42,547 nucleotides of DNA, taken from a virus. The position numbers and the translations under genes were made by a program. The DNA lies in the IMG/VR virus record IMGVR_UViG_3300009439_000003. One strand, written 5' to 3'. Under the pieces are notes generated by a model. It was given only the letters and a program-made list of their open reading frames with translations, was not told where the DNA came from and searched no databases. Below are positions 1,701 to 39,760 of the stretch, one piece after another (positions within the stretch are counted from its first letter, which is position 1; every line of letters starts with the position of its first letter).

Positions 1701-1714
1701 TTACAAAATAATGC

Positions 1715-1745
1715 TTGTACAACTTAAACTTAAAGTTTAAATTTG
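1715..1745 (+). promoter_or_regulatory. early-type promoter P1 (Bacteroidota -33/-7 type)
   Basis: TTG 1715-1717, a 20-nt spacer, then TAAATTTG 1738-1745. It is part of a ~70-bp module repeated at 26446 and 28709. Confidence 0.65.
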
Positions 1746-1771
1746 ACCATCATTAATAATTAAACCGAGAG
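1735..1771 (+). repeat. 37-nt core of the promoter/leader module, identical to 26473-26509
   Basis: GTTTAAATTTGACCATCATTAATAATTAAACCGAGAG is present at both loci. Confidence 0.9.
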
Positions 1772-1772
1772 C
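1762..1772 (+). promoter_or_regulatory. early-gene leader motif AAACCGAGAGC
   Basis: Perfect 11-mer, 4 nt upstream of ATG 1777. Confidence 0.7.
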
Positions 1773-1776
1773 AAAA

Positions 1777-2719: not shown

Positions 2720-2750
2720 ACCAATTAATAATTGTACCGATGGTACAGAA

Positions 2751-4100: not shown

Positions 4101-4111
4101 AAAACGAGAGC
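4101..4111 (+). promoter_or_regulatory. early-gene leader motif variant AAAACGAGAGC
   Basis: 10/11 match, 4 nt upstream of ATG 4116. Confidence 0.55.
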
Positions 4112-5145: not shown

Positions 5146-5153
5146 TATATTTG
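5146..5153 (+). promoter_or_regulatory. -7-type box TATATTTG upstream of the morphogenesis block
   Basis: ACTATATTTGTCAAA resembles the boxes at 28614 and 31753. There is no TTG at the expected -33 distance. Confidence 0.4.
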
Positions 5154-11741: not shown

Positions 11742-11811
11742 TGTGTTTTTTATAAATAGATGTAAGGAGATAGCTGAAAACTTTATAAATAAAAAACAAT
11801 AAATTTGTAAA

Positions 11812-12267
11812 ATGGTCAAAGGAATAGATGCGATACAGGATAAGTTGGAGAAGTTAAAGGAGTTCCAACAGAACGCTCCAAAATATGCGATTGATGCAGT
11901 TATGGAGGAGAAAGCGATTGTATTAGATATGAACTTTGAGGAGCAGTTATATTTGGAGGGTGTGAATAGAAACAATGTGCCTATAATGGATTACAAACCT
12001 TACTCTCCTGCAACTGAATTTATCAAACAGCAAAAGCGCCAACCTTATGACAGAGTTACGTTGAGAGATGGTGGGGATTTTCATAGCGATGGAGATGTTG
12101 AGAGGATTGATGATGTTACAGCCGAGATAATCAGTACCGACCAAAAGAGCGAATGGCTACAAGATAAGTATGGAAAGGAGATATTGGGATTAAAGCCAGA
12201 TAATATGACCGAGTTAAAAGAGAATTACGTTAAACCGTATTTACATAAAAAGTTAGAGGAGATATGA
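11812..12267 (+). CDS. putative head-tail or tail component (151 aa)
   Basis: ORF in the structural block. TAAATTTG 11800-11807 ends 4 nt before the ATG. Confidence 0.5.
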   Translation: MVKGIDAIQDKLEKLKEFQQNAPKYAIDAVMEEKAIVLDMNFEEQLYLEGVNRNNVPIMDYKPYSPATEFIKQQKRQPYDRVTLRDGGDFHSDGDVERIDDVTAEIISTDQKSEWLQDKYGKEILGLKPDNMTELKENYVKPYLHKKLEEI

Positions 12268-18700: not shown

Positions 18701-19351
18701 CAGAAAGAGTTGGAGCAAAAGAGAAAGAATGAAAGACAGGCTTTAAAGGATAAGGAAAAGGCTCAAAAAGCACAGGAGGCGATTGATACAGCAATGCAGA
18801 TTTCTGGTTTAATTACATCATCTGTTCAAATCTGGAAAAGTTTAGCAGGAATACCTGTAGTTGGCCCCGCTTTGGCAGCAGCAGCAGTTGGAGTTATGTG
18901 GGGTTCTTTTGCAGCATCCAAGATAAAAGCAAAGAGCGTTGCGAAAGAGAAGTATGGAGATGGAGGATATGAGTTTTTAAATGGTGGCTCACATAGTTCT
19001 GGGAATGATATACCTATTGGCACAACTTCTGGAGGAAAACAAAGAACAGCCGAGGGAGGAGAGGCGTTGGCTATCATCAATAAAAAGAATACCAGAAAGT
19101 ACAGAGGAGTGATACCAACCTTGATTGATAGCTTAAACAAAGGAACTTTTGAGAGAGTGTTTAGTAATTCATTTATTCCAAGCGAGGAGATTCCAAGTTT
19201 GGTAAATGTTGGTTTTGATAGTCCAGATTTAAAACAGATTGAGGATGATTTGGGAGCGATTAAAAAGAGAGGAGCAACCCAGAGATTTACAGATGGGCAA
19301 GGGAGATTGGTTGAGGTTTATAAGAATGTAACGAGAACTTATGTAGATTAA
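15749..19351 (+). CDS. tail tape measure protein
   Basis: 1200 aa with long coiled-coil tracts and hydrophobic segments (LLSPIGLVLSAVGALFYLIA, GIPVVGPALAAAAVGVMWGSFAA). It follows the chaperone pair. Confidence 0.85.
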   Translation: MSNPIKGSDLYQDDGAIDKGIKDLEKMKEAYTVMLDTITKEAENLIAKLKEVNTTTTEGQGAAKKAMTDAEKLKKAQKEYASALNDTNTKIRALRDAKREDIREQKLQNKLAKSAEGSYNKLSAQYSLNKLALNKMSIAERSATKSGQALEKQTREIYEEMNRLQKATGKHTLQVGNYGIATENLHPILGRVNQGLGAMGTSLEVLGEADKPFKVLKNAVLNFGKATLTFLLSPIGLVLSAVGALFYLIASNKDTVIQFNSDLIDVGKTANLSGEELRGLGQDIVDLSRKLKVIGTPALLQYAKVAGQLGVKGKENILAFTESLAKLETATNISGEEGASNITRLLTLTDGGVQNVKDFGDEIVNLGNNFAATESEILTNATAIAQNTAQYGVGRKIVLAYATATKAVGIEAELTGSTIGRTLGMMEKAIRTGKGIDSIAKITGQNVEELKAQFRDDPSAVFTNFIAGLKEVNSAGGSVNEQLENIGITSVRDQRVISSLATKGFDVLKGSIDEVNKSGGSLDKEFGAASGKLSAQLSRVGIAWDNFVLSIEDGEGFLSKIAAFFAGEFAKSIDRAAFFIKVMGAVISGIIAVFKQWFKEAGKFIQSIRDIADVEIDFSSPLESLKNIKNAFKNVGKTYVQGAVNTANAFGDAFKKELSRSMEATKKAMEKSGDELDKILDESIKKSIQSVGDIDAEIAKLNKTLKGAKSRGEASKIQNEIKALEDKRNAILGVANANLKEAESRAMGKQKAKIDVMEDGESKDVAILDMELAEKRKLWEKYGLDVALLEDYEKRQRFLISQKWREKEIADAKAKQDKITADRRKANSEEMAIINDAYDLRLSEIDIMKNTEAEKTKLRLEAEKSRLEKILKLNETVNKQLSKDQIDAIKNTIKKIDGEIQGVGSGQKDIYQMVGLNLDDEQKQAISDSLSFALDNVNAFLDARVQSAEIAVQKAQEETSAAESRYQAEIDARNNGYANNVITAQKELEQKRKNERQALKDKEKAQKAQEAIDTAMQISGLITSSVQIWKSLAGIPVVGPALAAAAVGVMWGSFAASKIKAKSVAKEKYGDGGYEFLNGGSHSSGNDIPIGTTSGGKQRTAEGGEALAIINKKNTRKYRGVIPTLIDSLNKGTFERVFSNSFIPSEEIPSLVNVGFDSPDLKQIEDDLGAIKKRGATQRFTDGQGRLVEVYKNVTRTYVD

Positions 19352-19353
19352 TT

Positions 19354-21921
19354 ATGATAGAATATAAATGGACTTTACAACATAGAGAAAGTAATGAGGA
19401 TAATAAGATTGACCCCTATGCTATAACGCAGGGGTTTTACTGGTTTAATGATAATGAGGATGATAATAGTGCCTGTGCTTATAGTAAAAAAATATCAATT
19501 TCTCCAAACCAAAATTACCAAGGGAGGATAAATGGGAGTGCTACAACTAATATTTTTAGGTTTGTTACTTTTTATGATTTTAATGGAATGTATTTGAGTG
19601 ATTTGAATGGGTTTGTGGATAGTTTTTTAAGTCCAAGCGGTGCTTATTATTGTATTGTTACTATAAATAGTTTAATTAATGGATTAGATGCTGAAAATGT
19701 AAGTTTAACGTTAGGCTTAGCAAGTGAGTTTGTACCATATTATACAAGCAGGGTTGTTTCTCCTATTTATAAAAAGATGGCAAGAGGATACAAGTTAGAA
19801 AGTGGAAAGCAGTTTTATAGAGAGAAATTAGATGGAAATGTTAAATTGATTAGAGAGGATTTTGATTACATAGATGCTCTACCATTTGATACCGAGTTTA
19901 AATTGTTGATTGAGGACTTAACAGGAATATTGCAAGATTATAGAGGTCTGTTTTTTAAAACTGATTGTAAATGGAATGAGGATGATAGGATTGTTGAGTT
20001 AAAGATGGAGCCAGATGATGAGTATGTTGATTTACTTGCAGGATTAGAGAAAACTTATAATTTGGTAGAATTAGAGCCAGAGATTAATGAGTTGACATTG
20101 AAAAAAAGACCATTAATACAAGTTTATATTCCAGGCGATACAGTTGTTACAAATATTCTGGGAGGAACACATTGGGAGCAAGAGATACAAACCGACCCAA
20201 TATTTGACCATAATGCTTTAATAAATACCTATAAATTTGCCAATCCAAAAAACATCCGTATCGTTCCTGCATCTTATGCTGCTCAATTAAGTACAGACAT
20301 TACAGGAGAGTATGATGATAATAGATTGAATGCAAATGGTCTTTATAGATTAGAGGAGGTTGCAACAGGGCAATCATATTGGTATCAAAAATATTATCAA
20401 ATTGTTAGAGTTTCAGATGATGCAGTATTGTATAAAACAGCAAATACAGATTGGAGAAATACAAGTGTAAATAGTTTAGTTTTTAGAGGAGCAACCAGAA
20501 ACACAATTACAGAGACAGGAACTTTTTATTTTACTGAATACAAGATTTATGTTAGGTCTTATACCGATTTATTAGAGACAGAAGGAACAGGGCAAAGTCC
20601 TGTTTCTACATATGAAATACCAAGCGAGGATATTATTGCCAACAACCGTAATTATAGGAGGATAATAGGTTACAATATTGATGATTTTTATATTTATGAT
20701 GAGTTTGTTGAGTACCCAACTAAATTTGGAAAAGTACCAGATGATACTCCAGATGGAGGAAAGTATTACAAAGAGTTTTTGGTACCGGTTACAACAGGGT
20801 TGAGTAACCCACTTCCTGTAAGTTCATCAAATTGGAAAAGCGTTAGTTTGTGGTTTTTTAATACTTCATCAATTAGATATACCGAGTTTATAGATGGTCA
20901 AGATTACACATTGAGAGATAGCTACACTTTGGATAGTGTTATTGATGTGTTATTGAGAGAAATGGGCAGTACTGTAAGGCATAAAAATACAATTGAATAT
21001 AGCCAAGTGCTTTATGCTGATCTAAACCCATTAGGAGGATTTACTTATTTGGATTTTGATGGAGGAACTGCAATAGATTATTCTGGAAATATTAAACATT
21101 TTCTAACTGCAAAATCAAATATCATAGCAGGAGAGTATGACCAACCAAGTCAAAAGGCTAATGCATCATTGAGTCAGATTTTAAATATGTTGAGAGATTG
21201 TTACAGGATTTTCTGGCATATTGAAAATGGAAAATTAAGATTGGAGCATATTACTTGGTATCAAAATGGAGGAACTTATACAGGAACTATTTTGGGAGCA
21301 GATTTAACAACTTTGGTTCAACCTAAAAATGGAAAAAATTGGAGTTTCTCACAAGGAAAGTATGAGTATGATAAGGAGGAGATGCCAGAGAGATTTGAGT
21401 TTGGATGGATGGATGATGTGAGCGCTCCGTTTGAGGGGAAAGCAATTGAGATGGTTGGGAACTTTGTGCAAAGAGGTAGAATTGAGGATATGAATGTAAA
21501 TGGAATTACAACCGATATTGATTTTATTATGGCTAATCCGCAAGAAATTAGCAAGGATGGTTTTTGTTTGATTTCAACAGTTGAGGTTGATGGAGTTGAT
21601 AGAGTGCCTTTTATTGAGAGAGATATTGGGTTTAACCAAGAGGTTATAATGCAAAACGGATTTTTAAGTTGGCTATATTTACATCCTAAATTCCATATCT
21701 ACGATCTACCAAGTGATAAAGCGATTATTAATGGAGAGGAGGTTGGCCTTTTTTATAACAAAACAAGACAGAAAAAGCAAGAGGTTACATTTCCTGCACA
21801 AAATCAAATAAACCCCTTAAACATCATTAGAACCAATTTAGGAGATGGAATTGTTGATGCTTTTAAAATTGATATGAGTAGTAGAATAGTAAAAGCAACC
21901 ATAAAACACGATAACGAATGA
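19354..21921 (+). CDS. putative distal tail or tail-tip protein
   Basis: 855 aa, immediately downstream of the tape measure gene. Confidence 0.5.
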   Translation: MIEYKWTLQHRESNEDNKIDPYAITQGFYWFNDNEDDNSACAYSKKISISPNQNYQGRINGSATTNIFRFVTFYDFNGMYLSDLNGFVDSFLSPSGAYYCIVTINSLINGLDAENVSLTLGLASEFVPYYTSRVVSPIYKKMARGYKLESGKQFYREKLDGNVKLIREDFDYIDALPFDTEFKLLIEDLTGILQDYRGLFFKTDCKWNEDDRIVELKMEPDDEYVDLLAGLEKTYNLVELEPEINELTLKKRPLIQVYIPGDTVVTNILGGTHWEQEIQTDPIFDHNALINTYKFANPKNIRIVPASYAAQLSTDITGEYDDNRLNANGLYRLEEVATGQSYWYQKYYQIVRVSDDAVLYKTANTDWRNTSVNSLVFRGATRNTITETGTFYFTEYKIYVRSYTDLLETEGTGQSPVSTYEIPSEDIIANNRNYRRIIGYNIDDFYIYDEFVEYPTKFGKVPDDTPDGGKYYKEFLVPVTTGLSNPLPVSSSNWKSVSLWFFNTSSIRYTEFIDGQDYTLRDSYTLDSVIDVLLREMGSTVRHKNTIEYSQVLYADLNPLGGFTYLDFDGGTAIDYSGNIKHFLTAKSNIIAGEYDQPSQKANASLSQILNMLRDCYRIFWHIENGKLRLEHITWYQNGGTYTGTILGADLTTLVQPKNGKNWSFSQGKYEYDKEEMPERFEFGWMDDVSAPFEGKAIEMVGNFVQRGRIEDMNVNGITTDIDFIMANPQEISKDGFCLISTVEVDGVDRVPFIERDIGFNQEVIMQNGFLSWLYLHPKFHIYDLPSDKAIINGEEVGLFYNKTRQKKQEVTFPAQNQINPLNIIRTNLGDGIVDAFKIDMSSRIVKATIKHDNE

Positions 21922-26357: not shown

Positions 26358-26452
26358 TTTCATAATAATTCGTATTCTGAATTAATAATAAACCTCGCAA
26401 AATGAAATTTCAAAGAAAATAACATTTAAACTTAAATTTTAATAATTAATGC

Positions 26453-26483
26453 TTGTGTAGCTTAAACATAATGTTTAAATTTG
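26453..26483 (+). promoter_or_regulatory. early-type promoter P2
   Basis: TTG 26453-26455, a 20-nt spacer, then TAAATTTG 26476-26483. The module is near-identical to P1. Confidence 0.65.
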
Positions 26484-26499
26484 ACCATCATTAATAATT

Positions 26500-26510
26500 A
26501 AACCGAGAGA
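26500..26510 (+). promoter_or_regulatory. early-gene leader motif (AAACCGAGAGa)
   Basis: 10/11 match, 3 nt upstream of ATG 26514. Confidence 0.65.
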
Positions 26511-26513
26511 AAA

Positions 26514-26757: not shown

Positions 26758-26768
26758 TAATCGAGAGC
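26758..26768 (+). promoter_or_regulatory. leader motif variant TAATCGAGAGC
   Basis: The CGAGAGC core lies 4 nt upstream of ATG 26773. Confidence 0.5.
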
Positions 26769-26772
26769 AAAA

Positions 26773-27021
26773 ATGGAATATTCAATTTACAACGGTCTTA
26801 AATTCACAACAGGTGATATTAACAAGAATTTCAAAATCAAAGTTCACACTACTAACAAGTACGGAAAGAACTTAAATACATTGGTGGGAGTTTCTGGTTT
26901 AATTCGTTTGATTGGAGTTGAGATGGTTAATAAATTTGTTACCAGAAGTTTTAATGCAATGGAGGATAAAACGGTTTGCAAATTACGTTCTGGAGTTCGT
27001 GTTACTTTTTACTCTCACTAA
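26773..27021 (+). CDS. hypothetical protein (82 aa)
   Basis: ORF preceded by a leader-motif variant. Confidence 0.55.
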   Translation: MEYSIYNGLKFTTGDINKNFKIKVHTTNKYGKNLNTLVGVSGLIRLIGVEMVNKFVTRSFNAMEDKTVCKLRSGVRVTFYSH

Positions 27022-27034
27022 AAAAAATACAAAT

Positions 27035-27514
27035 ATGCTGATAAGCGTTTACACAGACGGGAGTTGCGATAACTCAAAAGGGATTGGGAGTTATGGATAT
27101 GTTATTATGGCTAAATTCAAGGGAGAAAATTATTTAAGAAAACATAGTAGCAAAAAGTATATGGATACTACCAATAATCGTATGGAGCTCAAAGCTATTA
27201 TTAAAGCATTAGAGAGCATTGATATAGGGCATAACATTGATGTTTATAGTGATAGCAAATATTGCGTTGATGGGATTAACCAATGGCTTGATGGATGGAT
27301 TAAAAAAGGAAATTTAAGGGATAAAATGAATTTTGAACTTTGGCAGAGATTTAGAGATGTTAGGAAAGTGCATAGAGATGGAGGAACTACCATAAATGTA
27401 ACTTGGGTACGTGGGCATAATGGGAATGAGTTTAATGAGATGGCAGATAAGTTGGCGAATGTTGGGAGGTTGAATATTGATGATGGAGGTAGAAATTGTA
27501 AAAAGTTAAATTAA
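27035..27514 (+). CDS. rnhA: ribonuclease H (RNase HI type)
   Basis: ATG 27035 is preferred over the track's TTG 26912. VYTDGSC, TNNRMELKAI, VYSDSKY and WVRGHNGNEFNEMADKLA align with the E. coli RNase HI D10/E48/D70/H124/D134 residues. Confidence 0.9.
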   Translation: MLISVYTDGSCDNSKGIGSYGYVIMAKFKGENYLRKHSSKKYMDTTNNRMELKAIIKALESIDIGHNIDVYSDSKYCVDGINQWLDGWIKKGNLRDKMNFELWQRFRDVRKVHRDGGTTINVTWVRGHNGNEFNEMADKLANVGRLNIDDGGRNCKKLN

Positions 27515-27526
27515 AATAGATATATT

Positions 27527-27865
27527 ATGAGAAATGTGATTTTATTATTAGGAGTTTTATTGATGGCAAGTTGTTCTGGAGAAAGTTTTGAGGAGGATTT
27601 ATACCAAGAGCAGGAGATTGTTGAGATTAGTTATGCTGATTTAATTGTTGGAGATTGGGATGATTTGAGCGATGATGATGAGGATGCGAGTTTTGATGGA
27701 GAGAAAGTTGTTTTTAGTTCTGGAGGTTTAGATTTTGAATATGAGTATTGGATTGACGGAGATAGTATTACTATCAAATATTCCAACACAATGATTAAGA
27801 CAAGAAAGCTGATTATTGATGGAGATGTTTTAAAAATTGGAGATAGAGAATATTTAAGGATATGA
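27527..27865 (+). CDS. lipoprotein (112 aa, acidic mature part)
   Basis: Signal peptide plus lipobox MRNVILLLGVLLMASC. The mature chain is D/E-rich. Confidence 0.7.
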   Translation: MRNVILLLGVLLMASCSGESFEEDLYQEQEIVEISYADLIVGDWDDLSDDDEDASFDGEKVVFSSGGLDFEYEYWIDGDSITIKYSNTMIKTRKLIIDGDVLKIGDREYLRI

Positions 27866-28345: not shown

Positions 28346-28585
28346 ATGAGTTTAAATAATTTACAAGAGTTCTCTCCAGAGGGAGGAAATGAGAATTTTG
28401 TTGAGTTTGAGAAAGGGCAAAAAGTTCAAATTTATAAAGACCCAAATTTTGAGGAAATTCCAGAAAGTATGGCGATTATTGATAGAGTATTGATGAGCGA
28501 AAAAACAAGGTCGCTTTGCTTGGTTACTCTGGAGAGTAATGATATGCAAGTTGAGAGATGGATAAAAAAGGAGGTTTTGGAATAA
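28346..28585 (+). CDS. hypothetical protein (79 aa)
   Basis: ATG 28346 is preferred over the track's TTG 28337. Confidence 0.5.
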   Translation: MSLNNLQEFSPEGGNENFVEFEKGQKVQIYKDPNFEEIPESMAIIDRVLMSEKTRSLCLVTLESNDMQVERWIKKEVLE

Positions 28586-28591
28586 TTTTTA

Positions 28592-28621
28592 TTGCAGGAG
28601 TGGTTGAATGTAGTATATTTG
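28592..28621 (+). promoter_or_regulatory. promoter of the ORF-less transcription unit
   Basis: TTG 28592-28594, a 19-nt spacer, then TATATTTG 28614-28621. Confidence 0.6.
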
Positions 28622-28626
28622 TATCA

Positions 28627-28701
28627 CTCCGCTAATATCCGACCGCTCTCGGTTTATCTGCCAATAAAGCCACTAACGTTCTTGTTAGTGGCTTTTCTTT
28701 T
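28627..28701 (+). ncRNA. candidate ~75-nt small RNA carrying the anti-leader sequence GCUCUCGGUUU
   Basis: A promoter lies upstream and an intrinsic terminator lies at the 3' end, with no ORF between them. Nt 28645-28655 are the exact reverse complement of the leader motif AAACCGAGAGC. The 5' end is only estimated. Confidence 0.45.
28667..28701 (+). terminator. rho-independent terminator
   Basis: 11-bp perfect stem AAGCCACTAAC/GTTAGTGGCTT (28667-28677 / 28684-28694), a 6-nt loop, then TTCTTTTT. Confidence 0.8.
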
Positions 28702-28712
28702 TAAATTAAAAC

Positions 28713-28743
28713 TTGTGTTAATTAAAATTAAAGTTTAAATTTG
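28713..28743 (+). promoter_or_regulatory. early-type promoter P3
   Basis: TTG 28713-28715, a 20-nt spacer, then TAAATTTG 28736-28743. It carries the same GTTTAAATTTGACCA core as P1 and P2. Confidence 0.65.
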
Positions 28744-28760
28744 ACCACATTAATATTGTA

Positions 28761-28771
28761 AAACCGAGAGA
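28761..28771 (+). promoter_or_regulatory. early-gene leader motif (AAACCGAGAGa)
   Basis: 10/11 match, 3 nt upstream of ATG 28774. Confidence 0.65.
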
Positions 28772-28773
28772 AA

Positions 28774-29368: not shown

Positions 29369-30475
29369 ATGAGTAACGAGAGCGAAAAAGCAAAAGACAT
29401 TGAAGTAAAAGGAGCTAAAGAGATTAGTGCTTTTGATAAGATGATGGCTGACAATCCAGATGGAGTTTATGAGTTGGCGCCTGGCTTAACATCGGAGGAG
29501 ATGTTTGCAGTTTTCTTTGATGAGAAAGCGTTGGTTGAGGCACCAGAAAAAATATACCGATTGCAAGGGAGTAGCCATAGGTATTATTACAAGTTTGATG
29601 AGCAAGGTTTGCCAGATTTCTTTACATCAGTAACAACGATGATTAAGCAAACGATGCCTACAAGTCCTCATTTGATTAAATGGATTGCTGATATGGGATA
29701 TGAGGAAAGTAGAAATTTTGCAGCAGAGAGAGCTGATTATGGAACTTTTATGCACACAGAAATTGCAGAGTTGTTGATTGCCAGAAAGTATGATACGGAG
29801 AAAATAAAAAGTAAGTTAAAAGCCTATATTGAAAAGGAAAACTTACCAAGTGATTTCATTAACCACGCAGATGAGTTGAAAAAAGATATTTTGGCTTTTG
29901 CTCAATTTATGATTGATTATAATGTTAAGCCATTAGCGATTGAGATTGTATTGAGCCACCCAACAGATGGATATGCAGGAGCGATTGATTTGGTCGCTGA
30001 AATATCTGGAGAAATTTCTGGGCATTGGGGAGAGGTTTATAAATCTGGAGCAAAGGTTGGTCAACCGAGAAAGACAACTAAATTTATTGAGGGAGTTAAA
30101 TGTATTATTGATTTCAAAAGTGGGAGAAAGGGATTTTATGAAGAACACGAGATACAATTACAAGCATACCAAGAGATGTGGGATGCTCACTTTCCAGATA
30201 GAAAAGTTGAGAAAAGGTTTAATTGGTCGCCAAAAGAATGGAGAGGAGCGAAACCAACCTATAATTTGAAAGACCAAACGGAGGCAAAAAGTGTTTATAA
30301 ATTAAAGCATCTGGTTGAATTAGCAAGAGTTGAGAAAGATAGGAGAAATGATACAGTTGTTGTAATTTCTGGAGAAATTGACTTAAAGGATAGATTGGAT
30401 AAGAATATGCAGGAAATGACATTAAGTGAATTGGTTAAAAAGAGAAAGACTGAAAAGGATAAACCAACCAAGTAA
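29369..30475 (+). CDS. PD-(D/E)XK family exonuclease (RecB/Cas4-like nuclease fold)
   Basis: Motifs GTFMHTEIAE, GAIDLV, IIDFKSG (D-x-K) and HEIQLQAYQ are present in the canonical order. Confidence 0.7.
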   Translation: MSNESEKAKDIEVKGAKEISAFDKMMADNPDGVYELAPGLTSEEMFAVFFDEKALVEAPEKIYRLQGSSHRYYYKFDEQGLPDFFTSVTTMIKQTMPTSPHLIKWIADMGYEESRNFAAERADYGTFMHTEIAELLIARKYDTEKIKSKLKAYIEKENLPSDFINHADELKKDILAFAQFMIDYNVKPLAIEIVLSHPTDGYAGAIDLVAEISGEISGHWGEVYKSGAKVGQPRKTTKFIEGVKCIIDFKSGRKGFYEEHEIQLQAYQEMWDAHFPDRKVEKRFNWSPKEWRGAKPTYNLKDQTEAKSVYKLKHLVELARVEKDRRNDTVVVISGEIDLKDRLDKNMQEMTLSELVKKRKTEKDKPTK

Positions 30476-31747: not shown

Positions 31748-31760
31748 AATAGTATATTTG
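31731..31760 (+). promoter_or_regulatory. promoter (TTG-N19-TATATTTG)
   Basis: TTG 31731-31733 and TATATTTG 31753-31760. The AGTATATTTGT box is the same as at 28612. Confidence 0.6.
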
Positions 31761-31866: not shown

Positions 31867-32265
31867 ATGTTAAAAAAGAGAGCGAAAAAGGATTTTGAGT
31901 ATTGGGTTTGGAAACAAAATCAAGAATTAATTAAAAAGGATGTTAAGTATTATTTGGTATTGGTTGAGGGAAAGTTTGAGGAAAGAATACCATTTGATAT
32001 GAGGTTTGGTTTTTATGTAAAATGGTTTTGTAGAGTAGGAATACCAATAGGAGTTGCACCAGAGTATAATGAGCATAACAATGAGTTTAATGGCTATATG
32101 CCAATAATAAGAGATGCTATTTTCTGGAAAGCAAATGAGGATGGATATTATAAAGACTTGCAGGAGGCAAGAGAGGTGTTAATTAGGGAGGCTATGATAA
32201 TTTATAACAAAGAGTTATCGTGGAAAGAATTTAAAGAGCAAAGAGGATATGGGAGTAATAAATAA
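31867..32265 (+). CDS. hypothetical protein (132 aa)
   Basis: ORF with an ATG start 4 nt after the T9 tract. Confidence 0.6.
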   Translation: MLKKRAKKDFEYWVWKQNQELIKKDVKYYLVLVEGKFEERIPFDMRFGFYVKWFCRVGIPIGVAPEYNEHNNEFNGYMPIIRDAIFWKANEDGYYKDLQEAREVLIREAMIIYNKELSWKEFKEQRGYGSNK

Positions 32266-32440
32266 AGATAGGTTTGTTGGGTTTGATTTGCAGGATAAAA
32301 ATGATATGTTGGTTTCAATTTTAGGAAACAGAGGGAAGTATTTAACACAAAAAGAATGTTGTTTAATTGAGGAAAAATTAAAGAAAGCAAAAGTTTTCTC
32401 AATAAAAAATGATGTTGAAAAATTAAACCGAGAGCAATAA
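32249..32440 (+). CDS. hypothetical protein (63 aa)
   Basis: ORF overlapping the upstream 3' end by 17 nt. Its own 3' end contains the leader motif for the next gene. Confidence 0.5.
   Translation: MGVINKDRFVGFDLQDKNDMLVSILGNRGKYLTQKECCLIEEKLKKAKVFSIKNDVEKLNREQ
32425..32435 (+). promoter_or_regulatory. early-gene leader motif AAACCGAGAGC
   Basis: Perfect 11-mer, 4 nt upstream of ATG 32440, inside the upstream ORF (..LNREQ*). Confidence 0.7.
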
Positions 32441-33230: not shown

Positions 33231-34133
33231 ATGTTACCAATAGAAAGAAAGAGCAATGCTCTTGCATTAAGACAGGACAAATATTTGAATGATAAAATAT
33301 TACTTCTCCAGAATGAGGATGTTTTGTTAAAGGTTGGAGAGAGAGATTTGATGATTGCAAATGCAGGAGTTGAGCAACCTATTAGAAAATATACCGATGA
33401 GGAGTTGATTAGTGTGGTGGCAAAGTCTGCTAAAATGATTTGCCGAGATATTGGTGTTAAGGATTGGAATAACCCAAGCATTATGAAATATGATGCAACC
33501 AGATTTTTCACTACTCTAAAAAATTACTACAAGGATTTAAGTTTAAAGGAGGTCAAGATGGCTTTTGAATTAGCAGCAGTTGGAGAGTTGGATGAGTGGT
33601 TGCCAAAAGATAAAAATGGCAATCCAGATAAAAACCACTACCAAGCATTTTCAATGGAGTATTATACCAAGATACTCAATGCGTATAAAGCGAAAAAAAA
33701 TAAGGTTTGGCACAAAGTTAGAAAGGCATTGCCTCCTCCAGAGTACACAATTACAGCCGAGCAAAAAAAGAAAAACAAGGAGGCTTTTTTCAATGATATT
33801 TATGATGCTTTTGATAAGTATAAGAATGAGAAAATTGAGCCAAATTTTATATTAAGTATCTTTTATAAAGAGTTTGTTAGTAGAGGTTTGATTGATGGAG
33901 AGGAGAAAATGAGCAAAAAATCCATTGACAGAGCATATCGCAAGTTAATTGATAGTGATACTCCTCGAAAAGAAAAAAAGGCAGTTATACAAGATTATCA
34001 CAAAAATAAGATTGCACCAGCTTTGATTAGTTCAGCAGAGAGGATTGAGTATAATGAGAGGATAAGAGTATATTTTGACAAAATAATTAGAGAGAATTTA
34101 GATATTAGAATAGTAATTAAAACCGAGAGTTAA
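33231..34133 (+). CDS. hypothetical protein (300 aa; replication-module context)
   Basis: Long ORF directly after the initiator-like gene. No NTPase motif was seen. Confidence 0.6.
   Translation: MLPIERKSNALALRQDKYLNDKILLLQNEDVLLKVGERDLMIANAGVEQPIRKYTDEELISVVAKSAKMICRDIGVKDWNNPSIMKYDATRFFTTLKNYYKDLSLKEVKMAFELAAVGELDEWLPKDKNGNPDKNHYQAFSMEYYTKILNAYKAKKNKVWHKVRKALPPPEYTITAEQKKKNKEAFFNDIYDAFDKYKNEKIEPNFILSIFYKEFVSRGLIDGEEKMSKKSIDRAYRKLIDSDTPRKEKKAVIQDYHKNKIAPALISSAERIEYNERIRVYFDKIIRENLDIRIVIKTES
34120..34130 (+). promoter_or_regulatory. early-gene leader motif (AAACCGAGAGt)
   Basis: 10/11 match, 4 nt upstream of ATG 34135, inside the upstream ORF (..IKTES*). Confidence 0.65.
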
Positions 34134-34134
34134 A

Positions 34135-34416
34135 ATGAATGCAAAAAATGTTTATCAAAAAGCCATTGAAAAATGGGGAGTTAATGCACAGGTTGATATG
34201 GTGCAAGAGGAGTGTTTGGAATTAGCACTTGCAATTAGAAAATATAGGAGAGAACCAAATGAGAAAAGGTTTGAGGAGTTTATTGATGAGGTTGCCGATG
34301 TTACAATTATGGTTAATCAAATGGAAAATGTTGAGGGATGGAAAGAGTTGATTGATGAGAGAATTGCTTTTAAATTAAATAGGTTAAATGACCGAATAAC
34401 TAATAATCAATTTTAA
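34135..34416 (+). CDS. MazG-like nucleotide pyrophosphohydrolase (small all-alpha NTP-PPase)
   Basis: 93 aa with paired acidic helices: VQEECLELALAI (EExxE) and EFIDEVADVTIM (DExxD). Confidence 0.55.
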   Translation: MNAKNVYQKAIEKWGVNAQVDMVQEECLELALAIRKYRREPNEKRFEEFIDEVADVTIMVNQMENVEGWKELIDERIAFKLNRLNDRITNNQF

Positions 34417-35617: not shown

Positions 35618-35628
35618 AAATCGAGAGC
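35618..35628 (+). promoter_or_regulatory. leader motif variant AAATCGAGAGC
   Basis: 10/11 match, 2 nt upstream of ATG 35631. Confidence 0.55.
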
Positions 35629-37513: not shown

Positions 37514-38182
37514 ATGAAAAACACGGAGTTATCGCAATTTACATTGCAAAAAGTAAAAACAAAAGGTCAAGGTCTGGAGGCTACTTTTGAAGTGCAGGAA
37601 ACCACAGGAGTTGAAGTTTACCACGACCAGAAAACAGTTAAAAGTGATAAAACACCTCATCCAGATTTGACTGCAATTATTAAAGTTTTCAGAGGACACA
37701 TGGGAGAGATTTTTTACTTCTCAACAATTAGAGAGTTGATTGATAGTAAAGTTTTTATGCCAAACCCATCACAAACAAAAATCCTTGCATCAAAATACAA
37801 TGATTTAGAGAGCAAGATTAATGTTACAGGCGTTTCTGTATCTGGAAAAGAGGAAAACAAAGGAATGATTATTACTGCAAAGCTGAAAACAGAAACAGGA
37901 CAGGAGGTTGCAATTAATTCTCAACGTATTAAATTCAATGGAACCAAGTACGGATTTGAGGAGGATTTGGAGAACTTGATTACAGATTTGGAGGCAGAGG
38001 TTTTTGAGTATGTAATTAATGGAAAACAGGCGCAGATTGAGATGGCATTTGATGATGAGCCAGATGGAAAGACCAAAGCAGCAGGAGTTGAGAAAGATGA
38101 TGATGGGCAGTTGGATATGATGGAGGAGGCTTTGAAAGATGATGAGAAAGTTGAGGAGGAGGAAAGCCAAGAGGAGGAGTAA
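37514..38182 (+). CDS. hypothetical protein with an acidic C-terminal tail (222 aa)
   Basis: ATG 37514 is preferred over the track's TTG 37472. It ends ..DDEKVEEEESQEEE. Confidence 0.6.
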   Translation: MKNTELSQFTLQKVKTKGQGLEATFEVQETTGVEVYHDQKTVKSDKTPHPDLTAIIKVFRGHMGEIFYFSTIRELIDSKVFMPNPSQTKILASKYNDLESKINVTGVSVSGKEENKGMIITAKLKTETGQEVAINSQRIKFNGTKYGFEEDLENLITDLEAEVFEYVINGKQAQIEMAFDDEPDGKTKAAGVEKDDDGQLDMMEEALKDDEKVEEEESQEEE

Positions 38183-39381: not shown

Positions 39382-39760
39382 AGCAAGAGGAATGAGCAAC
39401 AATGCTCGAAACAAAAGGGAGTTTAAAAAAATCCAATTAAAACTCAATGGTTATCTTAATGCTTTTATAAGTATCTGTTATTTTGAGGAGAAAAAATTGG
39501 ATTGGAATATTATAACCGAGAAAGAGTTTACCAGATTGAGAGGTAAATGGAAAGCCTTTTGTAAAAACAAAGGATATTCGGAGGATGTTATTGCAGCTTT
39601 TCATTGGGATTGTATGTTGCTAAAAGTTGATTTAATAATGCAGACCAAGTATGAGAAAGAGGCAGATAAAAATGAGATATTAGTTTATCTAAAAAAAGGA
39701 ATGACACCGTTAGAAGTGGCAGACTATATGTTTAAAAATTCAAAAACAACAGAAGTATGA
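39374..39760 (+). CDS. hypothetical protein (128 aa)
   Basis: ORF overlapping the upstream stop by 8 nt. Confidence 0.55.
   Translation: MSKARGMSNNARNKREFKKIQLKLNGYLNAFISICYFEEKKLDWNIITEKEFTRLRGKWKAFCKNKGYSEDVIAAFHWDCMLLKVDLIMQTKYEKEADKNEILVYLKKGMTPLEVADYMFKNSKTTEV

Follow-up and report, generated by a model that had tools for sequence, protein, structure and literature searches.

The C4 antisense RNA of phages P1 and P7 and the CI RNA of P4 are processed from the operon that they control, act on one or two sites, and belong to an immunity circuit. The T4 regulators RegA and RegB are proteins, namely a translational repressor and an endoribonuclease, respectively. Among bacteria, Bacteroides thetaiotaomicron possesses small RNAs (sRNAs) such as GibS, and enterobacterial sRNAs depend on Hfq, which is not known from Bacteroidota. 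Phage trans-acting sRNAs that pair at initiation regions include lambda PreS/LPR1 and VpdS of Vibrio phage VP882 (PMC12197685; bioRxiv 10.1101/2024.10.31.621285). The word stems ‘Bacteroid’ and ‘Flavobacter’ are absent from the full text of a 2025 review of phage sRNAs, and no description of a Bacteroidota-phage sRNA was found in the literature searched or in Rfam.

The locus described here lies at 28592–28703 of a viral DNA stretch of 42,547 nucleotides (hereafter, the window, meaning the whole stretch). It resembles the genes of bacterial trans-encoded sRNAs in having its own promoter, an intrinsic terminator, a predicted product within the range of 50–100 nt, and no ORF, as well as a short conserved seed against the initiation regions of several mRNAs. 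It differs from them in that the putative RNA comes from virulent-type siphophages, would be aimed at the phage's own genes via a common motif, and resembles no Rfam family in sequence or by covariance model. With a probability of roughly 0.55, we consider that positions 28626–28703 encode a ~77-nt trans-acting base-pairing sRNA that down-tunes a subset of DNA-metabolism genes. The locus is rated as a probable representative of an undescribed, widespread RNA family without an Rfam entry, whose candidate regulon is readable in the phage's own start regions; the literature searched, including the papers on isolated relatives, does not mention the RNA or the motif.

Promoter, terminator, and body of the putative RNA gene

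The RNA gene comprises the following features:

28592–28594, + strand: −33 element TTG, 19 nt 5′ of the −7 box
28614–28621, + strand: −7 promoter box TATATTTG of the Bacteroidota sigma-A type, TAHHTTTG
28626–28703, + strand: predicted non-coding RNA of ~77 nt, its start predicted from the G at −5 of the −7 box
28639–28652, + strand: predicted small stem-loop (CCGA, CCGCUC loop, UCGG), containing half of the seed
28644–28652, + strand: family-invariant core CGCTCTCGG, identical in all 16 representative RNAs bar one G-to-A variant
28645–28655, + strand: anti-motif GCTCTCGGTTT, the sole reverse-complement copy of AAACCGAGAGC
28645–28656, + strand: anti-motif or seed GCTCTCGGTTTA, complementary to TAAACCGAGAGC
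28666–28702, + strand: intrinsic terminator, a 13-pair stem (28666–28695) followed by the T-run TCTTTTT

The primary sigma factor of Bacteroidota recognises TTTG at −33 and TANNTTTG at −7, and the near-invariant positions in F. johnsoniae are T-12, A-11, T-8, T-7, T-6, and G-5, with G avoided at two free positions (PMC6847099). The −7 box of the window fits the F. johnsoniae rule, including the G at −5, and transcription is thus predicted to start at 28626. A scan of the window yielded two groups of such boxes in intergenic DNA. The first consisted of GTTTAAATTTGACCA with a TTG 20 nt upstream (1738, 26476, and 28736), each located 17 nt upstream of a copy of the start-codon motif described below, and the second consisted of TATATTTGT (5146, 28614, and 31753). 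An earlier note, made by a model from the DNA letters and a list of ORFs, had proposed a promoter composed of TTG at 28592–28594, a 19-nt spacer, and TATATTTG at 28614–28621, which is exact in the sequence. Its 11-bp terminator hairpin, with the arms AAGCCACTAAC/GTTAGTGGCTT, was likewise present within the 13-pair stem, and the terminator was the top-scoring terminator match within 24–34 kb, situated 81 nt past the stop codon of the upstream operon (28585).

The ~40 nt between promoter and terminator contain no conserved ORF, and the predicted RNA contains no AUG. The unit, which had been described as ORF-less, is so in these two respects but not mechanically: a 48-aa ORF starting with TTG (28592–28738) spans it. 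This ORF was rejected for lack of conservation; in the related Croceibacter phage P2559S, a 1-nt indel breaks any frame. The predicted fold of the RNA had a z-score of −6.7. Covariance model R1 matched 28626–28703 at 90.1 bits and model R2 matched 28626–28702 at 48.5 bits, and 90 covariance-model matches were obtained for the core CGCTCTCGG among the loci collected. The RNA does not qualify as cis-antisense, since every gene of the window runs in its direction and none overlaps it. ARAGORN predicted no tRNA or tmRNA gene in the window. In the window and three relatives, no Rfam family matched at gathering thresholds except for one tRNA elsewhere; the best sub-threshold match was Qrr (26 bits vs. 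50), no match to C4 reached its gathering threshold either, and scans of two unit regions in evalue mode gave neither C4 nor any other family. By sequence only, the combination of an independent promoter, an intrinsic terminator, and a non-coding body would place the locus among trans-encoded sRNA genes.

A start-codon motif complementary to the predicted RNA

The sites in the window that are complementary to the predicted RNA are as follows:

1761–1772, + strand: target site TAAACCGAGAGC, 4 nt before ATG 1777 (83 aa)
2241–2251, + strand: target site, 2 nt before ATG 2254 (69 aa)
2751–2761, + strand: target site, 4 nt before ATG 2766 (primase-like, 291 aa)
4101–4111, + strand: target site AAAACGAGAGC with one mismatch, 4 nt before ATG 4116
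26499–26509, + strand: target site TAAACCGAGAG, 4 nt before ATG 26514, the first gene after promoter 26476
26758–26768, + strand: target site TAATCGAGAGC, before ATG 26773 (82 aa, phrog_32997)
28761–28771, + strand: target site AAACCGAGAGA, 2 nt before ATG 28774 (43-aa CxxC protein)
29377–29384, + strand: candidate site CGAGAGCG in codons 3–6 of the exonuclease gene (ATG 29369)
32424–32435, + strand: target site TAAACCGAGAGC, 4 nt before ATG 32440 (replication initiator-like)
34120–34130, + strand: target site AAACCGAGAGT, 4 nt before ATG 34135 (MazG-like NTP pyrophosphohydrolase)
35618–35628, + strand: target site AAATCGAGAGC, 2 nt before ATG 35631

The motif AAACCGAGAGC occurred with at most one mismatch in nine copies on the + strand, each located 2–4 nt 5′ of an ATG, and a tenth copy with two mismatches was present at 26758. 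The − strand contained exactly one copy, which is the anti-motif in the RNA unit. In 100 shuffled sequences, the mean number of motif matches was 0.29 and a count of 10 was never attained; by uniform arithmetic, an exact inverted 11-mer would arise somewhere in 42.5 kb with a chance of ~0.01. The motif-bearing genes accounted for 10 of the 74 + strand ORFs, which were tiled by hand from the ORF list. Several statements of the earlier note can be judged from these counts. Its exact reverse complement at 28645–28655 is indeed the only inverted copy, and the 12-nt matches to the leaders of the genes at 1777 and 32440 are correct. Its assignment of the motif to at least 10 genes stands for 10 sites, nine of them with no more than one mismatch, but only four are exact 11-mers, and the spacing to the ATG is 2–4 nt rather than 0–4 nt. 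The motif marks a subset of genes and not the whole early regulon, and the suggestion of a decoy titrating whatever factor reads the motif fails because the sequence in the RNA is complementary to the motif rather than a copy of it.

The leaders of the targets were predicted to be open, with opening costs of 0.4–7.3 kcal/mol for the nine motif-bearing genes listed, and the motif occupies positions −6, −11, and −12 in place of favoured adenines. Together, these two properties fit a regulatory site rather than an enhancer. The 82-aa protein encoded by one of the target genes had no Pfam or PDB relative. A ranking of all leaders by RNA.duplexfold was discarded as uninformative because long interior loops inflate the energies; many duplexes at or below −14 kcal/mol were obtained with shuffled RNAs as well.

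Relatives in marine, gut, and Elizabethkingia phages

The nearest isolate was Croceibacter phage P2559S, with ~66% DNA identity to the window. The RNA unit was found in five marine relatives, namely in the gp39–gp40 gap of P2559S and in four further versions from IMG/VR and one metagenome. The −7 box TATATTTG was invariant in the six marine sequences, in which the −33 TTG was poorly conserved. These sequences were near-invariant from the −7 box through ATCTGC, although the marine relatives have only ~66% DNA identity to the window, and the 55 nt from the −7 box onward formed the best-conserved stretch of the region, whereas the DNA right after the upstream stop codon was not conserved. The terminator stem showed compensatory changes in four pairs among four marine sequences. 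In P2559S, the motif precedes six start codons and its only inverted copy lies within the RNA unit, while Flavobacterium phage 1/32 has the downstream 43-aa gene but neither the motif nor the RNA. Among 28 loci reached via this 43-aa gene, the RNA and motif were found in the marine clade only, and the 23 more distant loci had neither. A pattern search with a free anti-motif (TATATTTGT...ACTCC...TCCGA) in IMG/VR and metagenomes returned the known marine clade and chance matches, with no variant anti-motif. Model R1, built from the marine sequences alone, was too narrow, giving weak matches (E 0.13–3.5) at gut homologs that were recognised later.

A search with the motif revealed gut-phage contigs in which a second motif copy, read on the opposite strand, has the anatomy of the RNA unit, in the order TTTG, 19 nt, TATTTTTG, ~22 nt, AUAUCGCUCUCGGUUACUGCG, hairpin, and U-run. 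The unit was present in the isolated Parabacteroides phages PD491P1 and PDS1 and Bacteroides phages C1_85S2P and BKO1-3, and also in Alistipes phage AS73P1 and Elizabethkingia phage TCUEAP2. It is unannotated in all of them, and to say that Bacteroidota phages have no equivalent understates the case. In PDS1, the corresponding interval is MN929097 4393–4489, on the strand opposite to the genes. Spacing of 19 nt behind TTG or TTTG was likewise observed in PD491P1, TCUEAP2, L102, and L094. The position is syntenic with that in the window, between the operon headed by the 82-aa gene and that of the exonuclease. Relative to the genes, the entire unit is turned around in the gut phages and TCUEAP2, with the TAHHTTTG box and the terminator flipped along with it; the gut-phage RNA thus runs against the genes but is confined to an intergenic gap, where it diverges from the next promoter. 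As promoter and terminator flip together with the unit, the predicted transcript always carries CGCUCUCGG. The sense of this transcript alone is constant across the inversion, which is the strongest argument for an RNA as the functional product, and the conserved, co-flipping promoter and terminator support the independent transcription unit postulated earlier.

The exact 17-nt core occurred in more than 120 IMG/VR contigs (a lower bound), which were gut Bacteroidales and Elizabethkingia phage contigs, and the neighbouring marker gene is encoded by at least 247 IMG/VR contigs. A TAHHTTTG box was present in 76 of 91 distinct stretches containing CGCTCTCGGT; all but one of the remaining 15 were unrelated chance matches or start-codon target sites. 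The 76 units with a −7 box retained the TA..TTTG positions and varied at the middle two, which were never G (TAATTTTG in 23, TATTTTTG in 22, TACCTTTG in 21, TATATTTG in 5, TACTTTTG in 3, and TATCTTTG in 2). A hairpin of −8 kcal/mol or better followed by a T-run was found in 69 of 82 units. The terminators across the family used 19 different stem arms, and the median predicted RNA length was 79 nt. In several deposited genomes, hypothetical CDSs are annotated across the RNA gene; confirmation of the RNA would correct these annotations.

For a selection blind to the RNA, 80 loci were fetched via the neighbouring 82-aa gene. The RNA unit was found in 67 of them, opposite to the genes in 62 and co-directional in five, the latter being the marine clade. 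The 13 loci without it comprised two with core variants, two with mutated −7 boxes, eight shorter than the full flanks, and the divergent contig L336, in which the 82-aa gene is present and the RNA unit and motif are both truly absent. Copies of GAGAGC on the other strand of L336 were rejected as sites, lying inside coding regions and not being linked to starts. Motif and anti-motif were thus kept together across the family and were jointly absent from phage 1/32 and L336. A search for a host copy of the RNA with a 19-mer in bacterial genome collections matched just seven contigs of metagenome-assembled genomes (MAGs), none of which was a chromosomal-looking locus. Four of these were ~46 kb long, which is the phage genome size, and three were shorter pieces; this confinement gives no sign of a host copy.

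Regarding structure, the marine RNAs were predicted to form the small CCGA/UCGG stem with its CCGCUC loop, at a predicted seed-opening cost of 5–8 kcal/mol. The ACCG/CGGT stem proposed previously is not conserved (P2559S has AACG) and gives way to this fold. The gut RNAs were predicted to form a 9-pair stem, in which the conserved 5′ block CGCAUAACC pairs with GGUUA-UGCG. As predicted, the gut stem presents AUCGCUCUC in a loop of 13–17 nt; it is precisely this segment that is complementary to the gut motif, and such a stem would explain the conservation of both flanks. The 3′ arm of the 5′ stem-loop is invariant and its 5′ arm aligns out of register. Since no pair varies, this stem-loop is without covariation support and its fold is a purely thermodynamic prediction.

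For each phage, the sense strand was searched for stretches that could pair with the RNA of that phage. In the clade of the window, the site is (U)AAACCGAGAGC, 2–4 nt 5′ of the AUG. In the gut phages, it is AGAGCGAU (8 nt), often as AGAGCG-AUG, and PD491P1 has it at four annotated starts; because AGAGCG abuts the AUG, pairing in the gut phages would take in the start codon. In TCUEAP2 and the L102 group, CGAGAGCGA or AACCGAGAGC precedes the SMC-like gene. All seven complete genomes showed an enrichment of complementary sites of at least 8 nt around start codons (binomial P from 6e-3 to 4e-7) and a strong strand bias, with 7–19 sense sites vs. 0–5 antisense sites. Among 1000 shuffled cores per genome, 0–2 reached the observed count in six genomes and 27 did so in TCUEAP2. 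A hexamer search at annotated starts that was blind to the RNA ranked CGAGAG first in two genomes, with 11 starts vs. 0.56 expected for the window and 8 vs. 0.22 for P2559S. In AS73P1 and PD491P1, AGAGCG and GAGCGA were the only enriched hexamers that contained G or C and lacked ATG. All three hexamers are complements of the RNA.

Orthologous genes retained a complementary site in a lineage-specific register, as observed for the 82-aa, exonuclease, SMC-like, and MazG-like genes; the exception was the MazG-like gene of BKO1-3, for which no site was marked. The 82-aa gene carries such a site in every lineage, as follows:

Window: TAATCGAGAGC
P2559S: AACCGAGAGCG
TCUEAP2 and PD491P1: AGAGAGCGA
BKO1-3: AAGAGCGAT
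AS73P1: AGAGAGCGT

The MazG-like gut orthologs carry AGAGCG-ATG. The exonuclease site, located within the first codons, is also found in P2559S, and the gut phages have it at shifted positions; the exonuclease N-termini differ (MSNESE, MRANKK, and MRAKKSDK). Retention of the site despite differing amino acids points to selection on the RNA sequence, not the protein. The core is invariant where it would pair, and its single G-to-A variant falls outside the gut-type seed. One compensatory case was observed, in which the primase leader of P2559S has AUACC against GGUAU in its RNA, vs. AAACC and GGUUU in the window; the other P2559S leaders keep AAACC and mismatch the GGUAU RNA. In the gut phages, 17 nt are invariant, which exceeds the length needed by the observed sites and hints at a further constraint. 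Overall, these data support the view that the complementarity to the start-codon motif is not due to chance, the RNA and the motif being co-conserved across a deep phage family.

Proposed action, alternatives, and comparison with known systems

In the reading that we favour, host RNA polymerase would start the RNA at the TATATTTG promoter and stop at the hairpin terminator. The ~40-nt 5′ part of the RNA would bear the core CGCUCUCGG, partly exposed in a loop, and the core would pair over 9–12 nt with (U)AAACCGAGAGC at −16 to −5 of approximately ten phage mRNAs. These would include the primase-like, replication-initiator-like, and MazG-like mRNAs, that of the conserved 82-aa gene, and those of the first genes behind the three repeated promoters, with a further possible pairing site in the first codons of the exonuclease gene. 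Ribosomes of Bacteroidota need an A-rich, unpaired leader region (PMC6847099). Pairing would cover the A-rich stretch required by the ribosomes of these bacteria lacking Shine–Dalgarno sequences, and the most likely outcome would be lower translation, and possibly lower stability, of the target subset. We infer repression from the open leaders, the replacement of favoured adenines, and the coverage of the initiation region. The comparisons establish the conserved gene anatomy, the complementarity, its statistical association with start codons in seven genomes, and its persistence at orthologous genes, while production of the RNA, its pairing in vivo, and the sign and timing of its effect are inferences.

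The same pairing may have the opposite sign, the RNA activating or marking mRNAs through ribosome recruitment, 5′-end protection, or service as an adaptor on non-Shine–Dalgarno ribosomes. All of the complementarity evidence is blind to sign, the phage depends on the replication genes that are targeted, and the RNA promoter is of the canonical host type and could fire early. We nevertheless regard activation as unlikely: the leaders are predicted to be unstructured, leaving no inhibitory fold to relieve, pairing at −16 to −5 (or over the AUG in gut phages) would occupy the landing site of the ribosome, and no conserved RNA segment for ribosome contact is common to the clades, whose 5′ blocks are ACUCC and ACCGCAU.

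An improbable alternative is that host transcripts are the main targets and that pairing with the phage leaders is secondary. Lambda PreS/LPR1 and VP882 VpdS act on host mRNAs, and the 17-nt block, which is invariant across phages of different host genera, exceeds the 8–12 nt of the phage sites. However, the predicted stem GGUUACUGCG/CGCAUAACC can account for much of this block, the phage-internal signal is strong and replicated, and neither a host copy nor a mimic was found, the 19-mer occurring only in the MAG contigs mentioned above. It is more doubtful still that the RNA is a phage-supplied translation adaptor, whose pairing would mark phage mRNAs for preferential or timed initiation as the 16S rRNA tail does elsewhere; this reading is compatible with the results because every one of them is blind to the sign of the effect. 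For 16S rRNA mimicry or pairing by the RNA, we know of no match.

Less likely than either activation or host targets is a DNA operator, i.e., that the core is a transcription-factor site upstream of the exonuclease-operon promoter, that the start-codon copies are more such sites, and that there is no functional RNA. The core does lie ~60–115 bp upstream of the next co-directional gene promoter in both clades, and all gut-phage copies share one DNA orientation, but the marine clade has the opposite orientation and promoter and terminator nevertheless flip with the core. A TAHHTTTG box kept at a fixed distance, with variation at the free positions only, also argues against an operator, as do copies within 2–4 nt of start codons inside promoterless operons and the use of different sub-windows of the RNA complement at different sites.

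The remaining two readings are contradicted by the inversion, the conserved promoter box, and the missing downstream gene in most loci. A hairpin 81 nt past the stop codon at 28585 would also end transcripts from promoter 26476, but that the unit is merely the terminator or 3′ UTR of the upstream operon, with a fortuitous promoter-like box and complementarity, is very improbable given that conservation is highest over the 55 nt from the −7 box on and is lacking just after the stop, that 62 of 67 loci have the unit facing the upstream operon in the opposite direction, and that 10 motif matches were found where 0.29 are expected by chance. A cis-acting leader or attenuator governing read-through into the downstream gene is the least credible reading, for although a motif-bearing gene lies 70 nt downstream in the window and a read-through transcript could fold anti-motif onto motif, that gene has its own promoter at 28736, and no co-directional gene follows the RNA in the gut phages and TCUEAP2 or, among the loci fetched via the 82-aa gene, in 62 of 67.

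The putative sRNA family spans marine flavobacterial phages to very common ~45-kb phages of human-gut Bacteroidales, and the targets of the RNA can be read as a code in the genome of the phage itself. Confirmation of the RNA would demonstrate RNA-based post-transcriptional control of a phage replication module in hosts without Shine–Dalgarno initiation and Hfq, and the seed and motif would offer a simple handle for engineering or perturbing gut phages. Cultivable pairs of phage and host are PDS1 with P. distasonis, P2559S with C. atlanticus, and TCUEAP2 with E. anophelis.

The earlier note regarded the RNA as an analogue of the T4 RegA/RegB shut-off. The T4 effectors are proteins whereas the present element is non-coding, and at most a functional likeness stands, namely a possible co-ordinate control of an early or middle gene set via a short sequence in the initiation region. 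By analogy, the nearest phage RNAs appear to be P1 C4, P4 CI, PreS, and VpdS. Like C4 and CI, the predicted RNA is phage-encoded, ~70–80 nt long, and equipped with a loop that would pair with short sites at or near ribosome-binding sites; it differs from them in its independent promoter, its 5–10 dispersed targets, and the lack of a lysogeny context. In Proteobacteria, PreS and VpdS work together with Hfq and chiefly regulate host mRNAs, whereas the recognisable targets of the present RNA are phage genes in Bacteroidota.

Promoter-leader cassettes and further promoter boxes

Three promoter-leader cassettes ahead of motif-bearing genes were found in the window, in near-identical copies:

window 1713-1776, promoter-leader cassette
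window 26451-26513, promoter-leader cassette
window 28711-28773, promoter-leader cassette

All three share one layout: cTTGt, a spacer of 20 nt, GTTTAAATTTGACCA, and a second spacer of 17 nt that leads into the motif and ATG. Between the sites at 1762 and 26500, the 25 nt preceding the motif are identical, and the three cassettes appear to be duplicates of one early promoter module. Two further intergenic boxes were of the TA(G/C)TATATTTGTCAAA type present in the promoter of the predicted non-coding RNA:

window 5146-5153, intergenic box preceding the structural module (ATG 5218)
window 31753-31760, intergenic box followed by a leader of ~100 nt and the gene at 31867

The gene at 31867 contains GAGAGCG within codons 4-6 (31878-31884), which is possibly an additional site for the RNA.

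Hairpins and sequence variation at core and target

At some targets, a G+C-rich hairpin lies immediately upstream of the motif, as in the window and in two relatives, L019 (1984-1996) and L102 (approximately 11806-11826). The window copy is as follows:

window 2729-2741, G+C-rich hairpin gtaccgatggtac ahead of a primase-like gene

The SMC-like gene in the gut phages and in Elizabethkingia phage TCUEAP2 is likewise preceded by a hairpin, ccgggg..ccccgg. Such hairpins upstream of the motif could mark a site of processing, or act as stabilisers or attenuators.

The sole variant of the RNA core that was observed, CGCUCUCAGUU, is a G-to-A change in two relatives (L312 and L313; IMG/VR 7000000385_000054 and 3300045988_039036), and the affected position pairs with the marine-type motif only and also falls within the predicted stem. 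A metagenome contig (L057; Ga0209185_1000565, 42371 bp) was nearly identical to the window across the RNA unit. This contig has AAAACCGAGAGC before the 43-aa gene, where the window has AAAACCGAGAGA; therefore, one target site there matches better than in the window.

Annotation of the RNA gene and of genes preceding the terminase gene

Hypothetical CDSs overlie the RNA gene in the deposited annotations of OP172815 (Parabacteroides phage PD491P1; 24015-24112), OR296437, MN929097, and OP172640. The first of these is the following:

PD491P1 24107, GTG start of PD491P1_00026, a hypothetical CDS covering the RNA gene

The start of PD491P1_00026 was probably mis-called, because downstream of it the + strand carries a canonical promoter (TTTG, 19 nt, TACATTTG). 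Separately, Croceibacter phage P2559S gp68, Bacteroides phage BKO1-3 gp44, and C1_85S2P 18712-19377 occupy corresponding map positions directly ahead of the terminase gene. The comparison covered position and annotation: two of the three records read 'Rnase E', and the other reads 'RNA polymerase sigma factor'.

Candidate pairing outside the core-motif sites

Complementarity to other parts of the RNA was observed at the following sites:

PD491P1 39383-39394 and L180 (a relative) 38120-38129, site within the ASCH-domain gene, complementary to the RNA 3' arm, inside a local hairpin
PD491P1 34388-34396 and Bacteroides phage C1_85S2P reverse-complement coordinate 16556, start region complementary to the RNA 5' block (genes at PD491P1 34393 and C1_85S2P 27013-27831)

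The ASCH-domain site (GGTACGCAGTAA / TTCGCAGTAA) is shared by two distant phages, where it may be conserved as coding sequence or may serve as an internal target. The complementarity to the 5' block (AGGUUAUGC) includes the AUG, and the C1_85S2P gene is annotated as a DNA polymerase. A 276-aa gene of Alistipes phage AS73P1 (23487), which lies at a similar map position, carries the core motif AGAGCGAUG instead.
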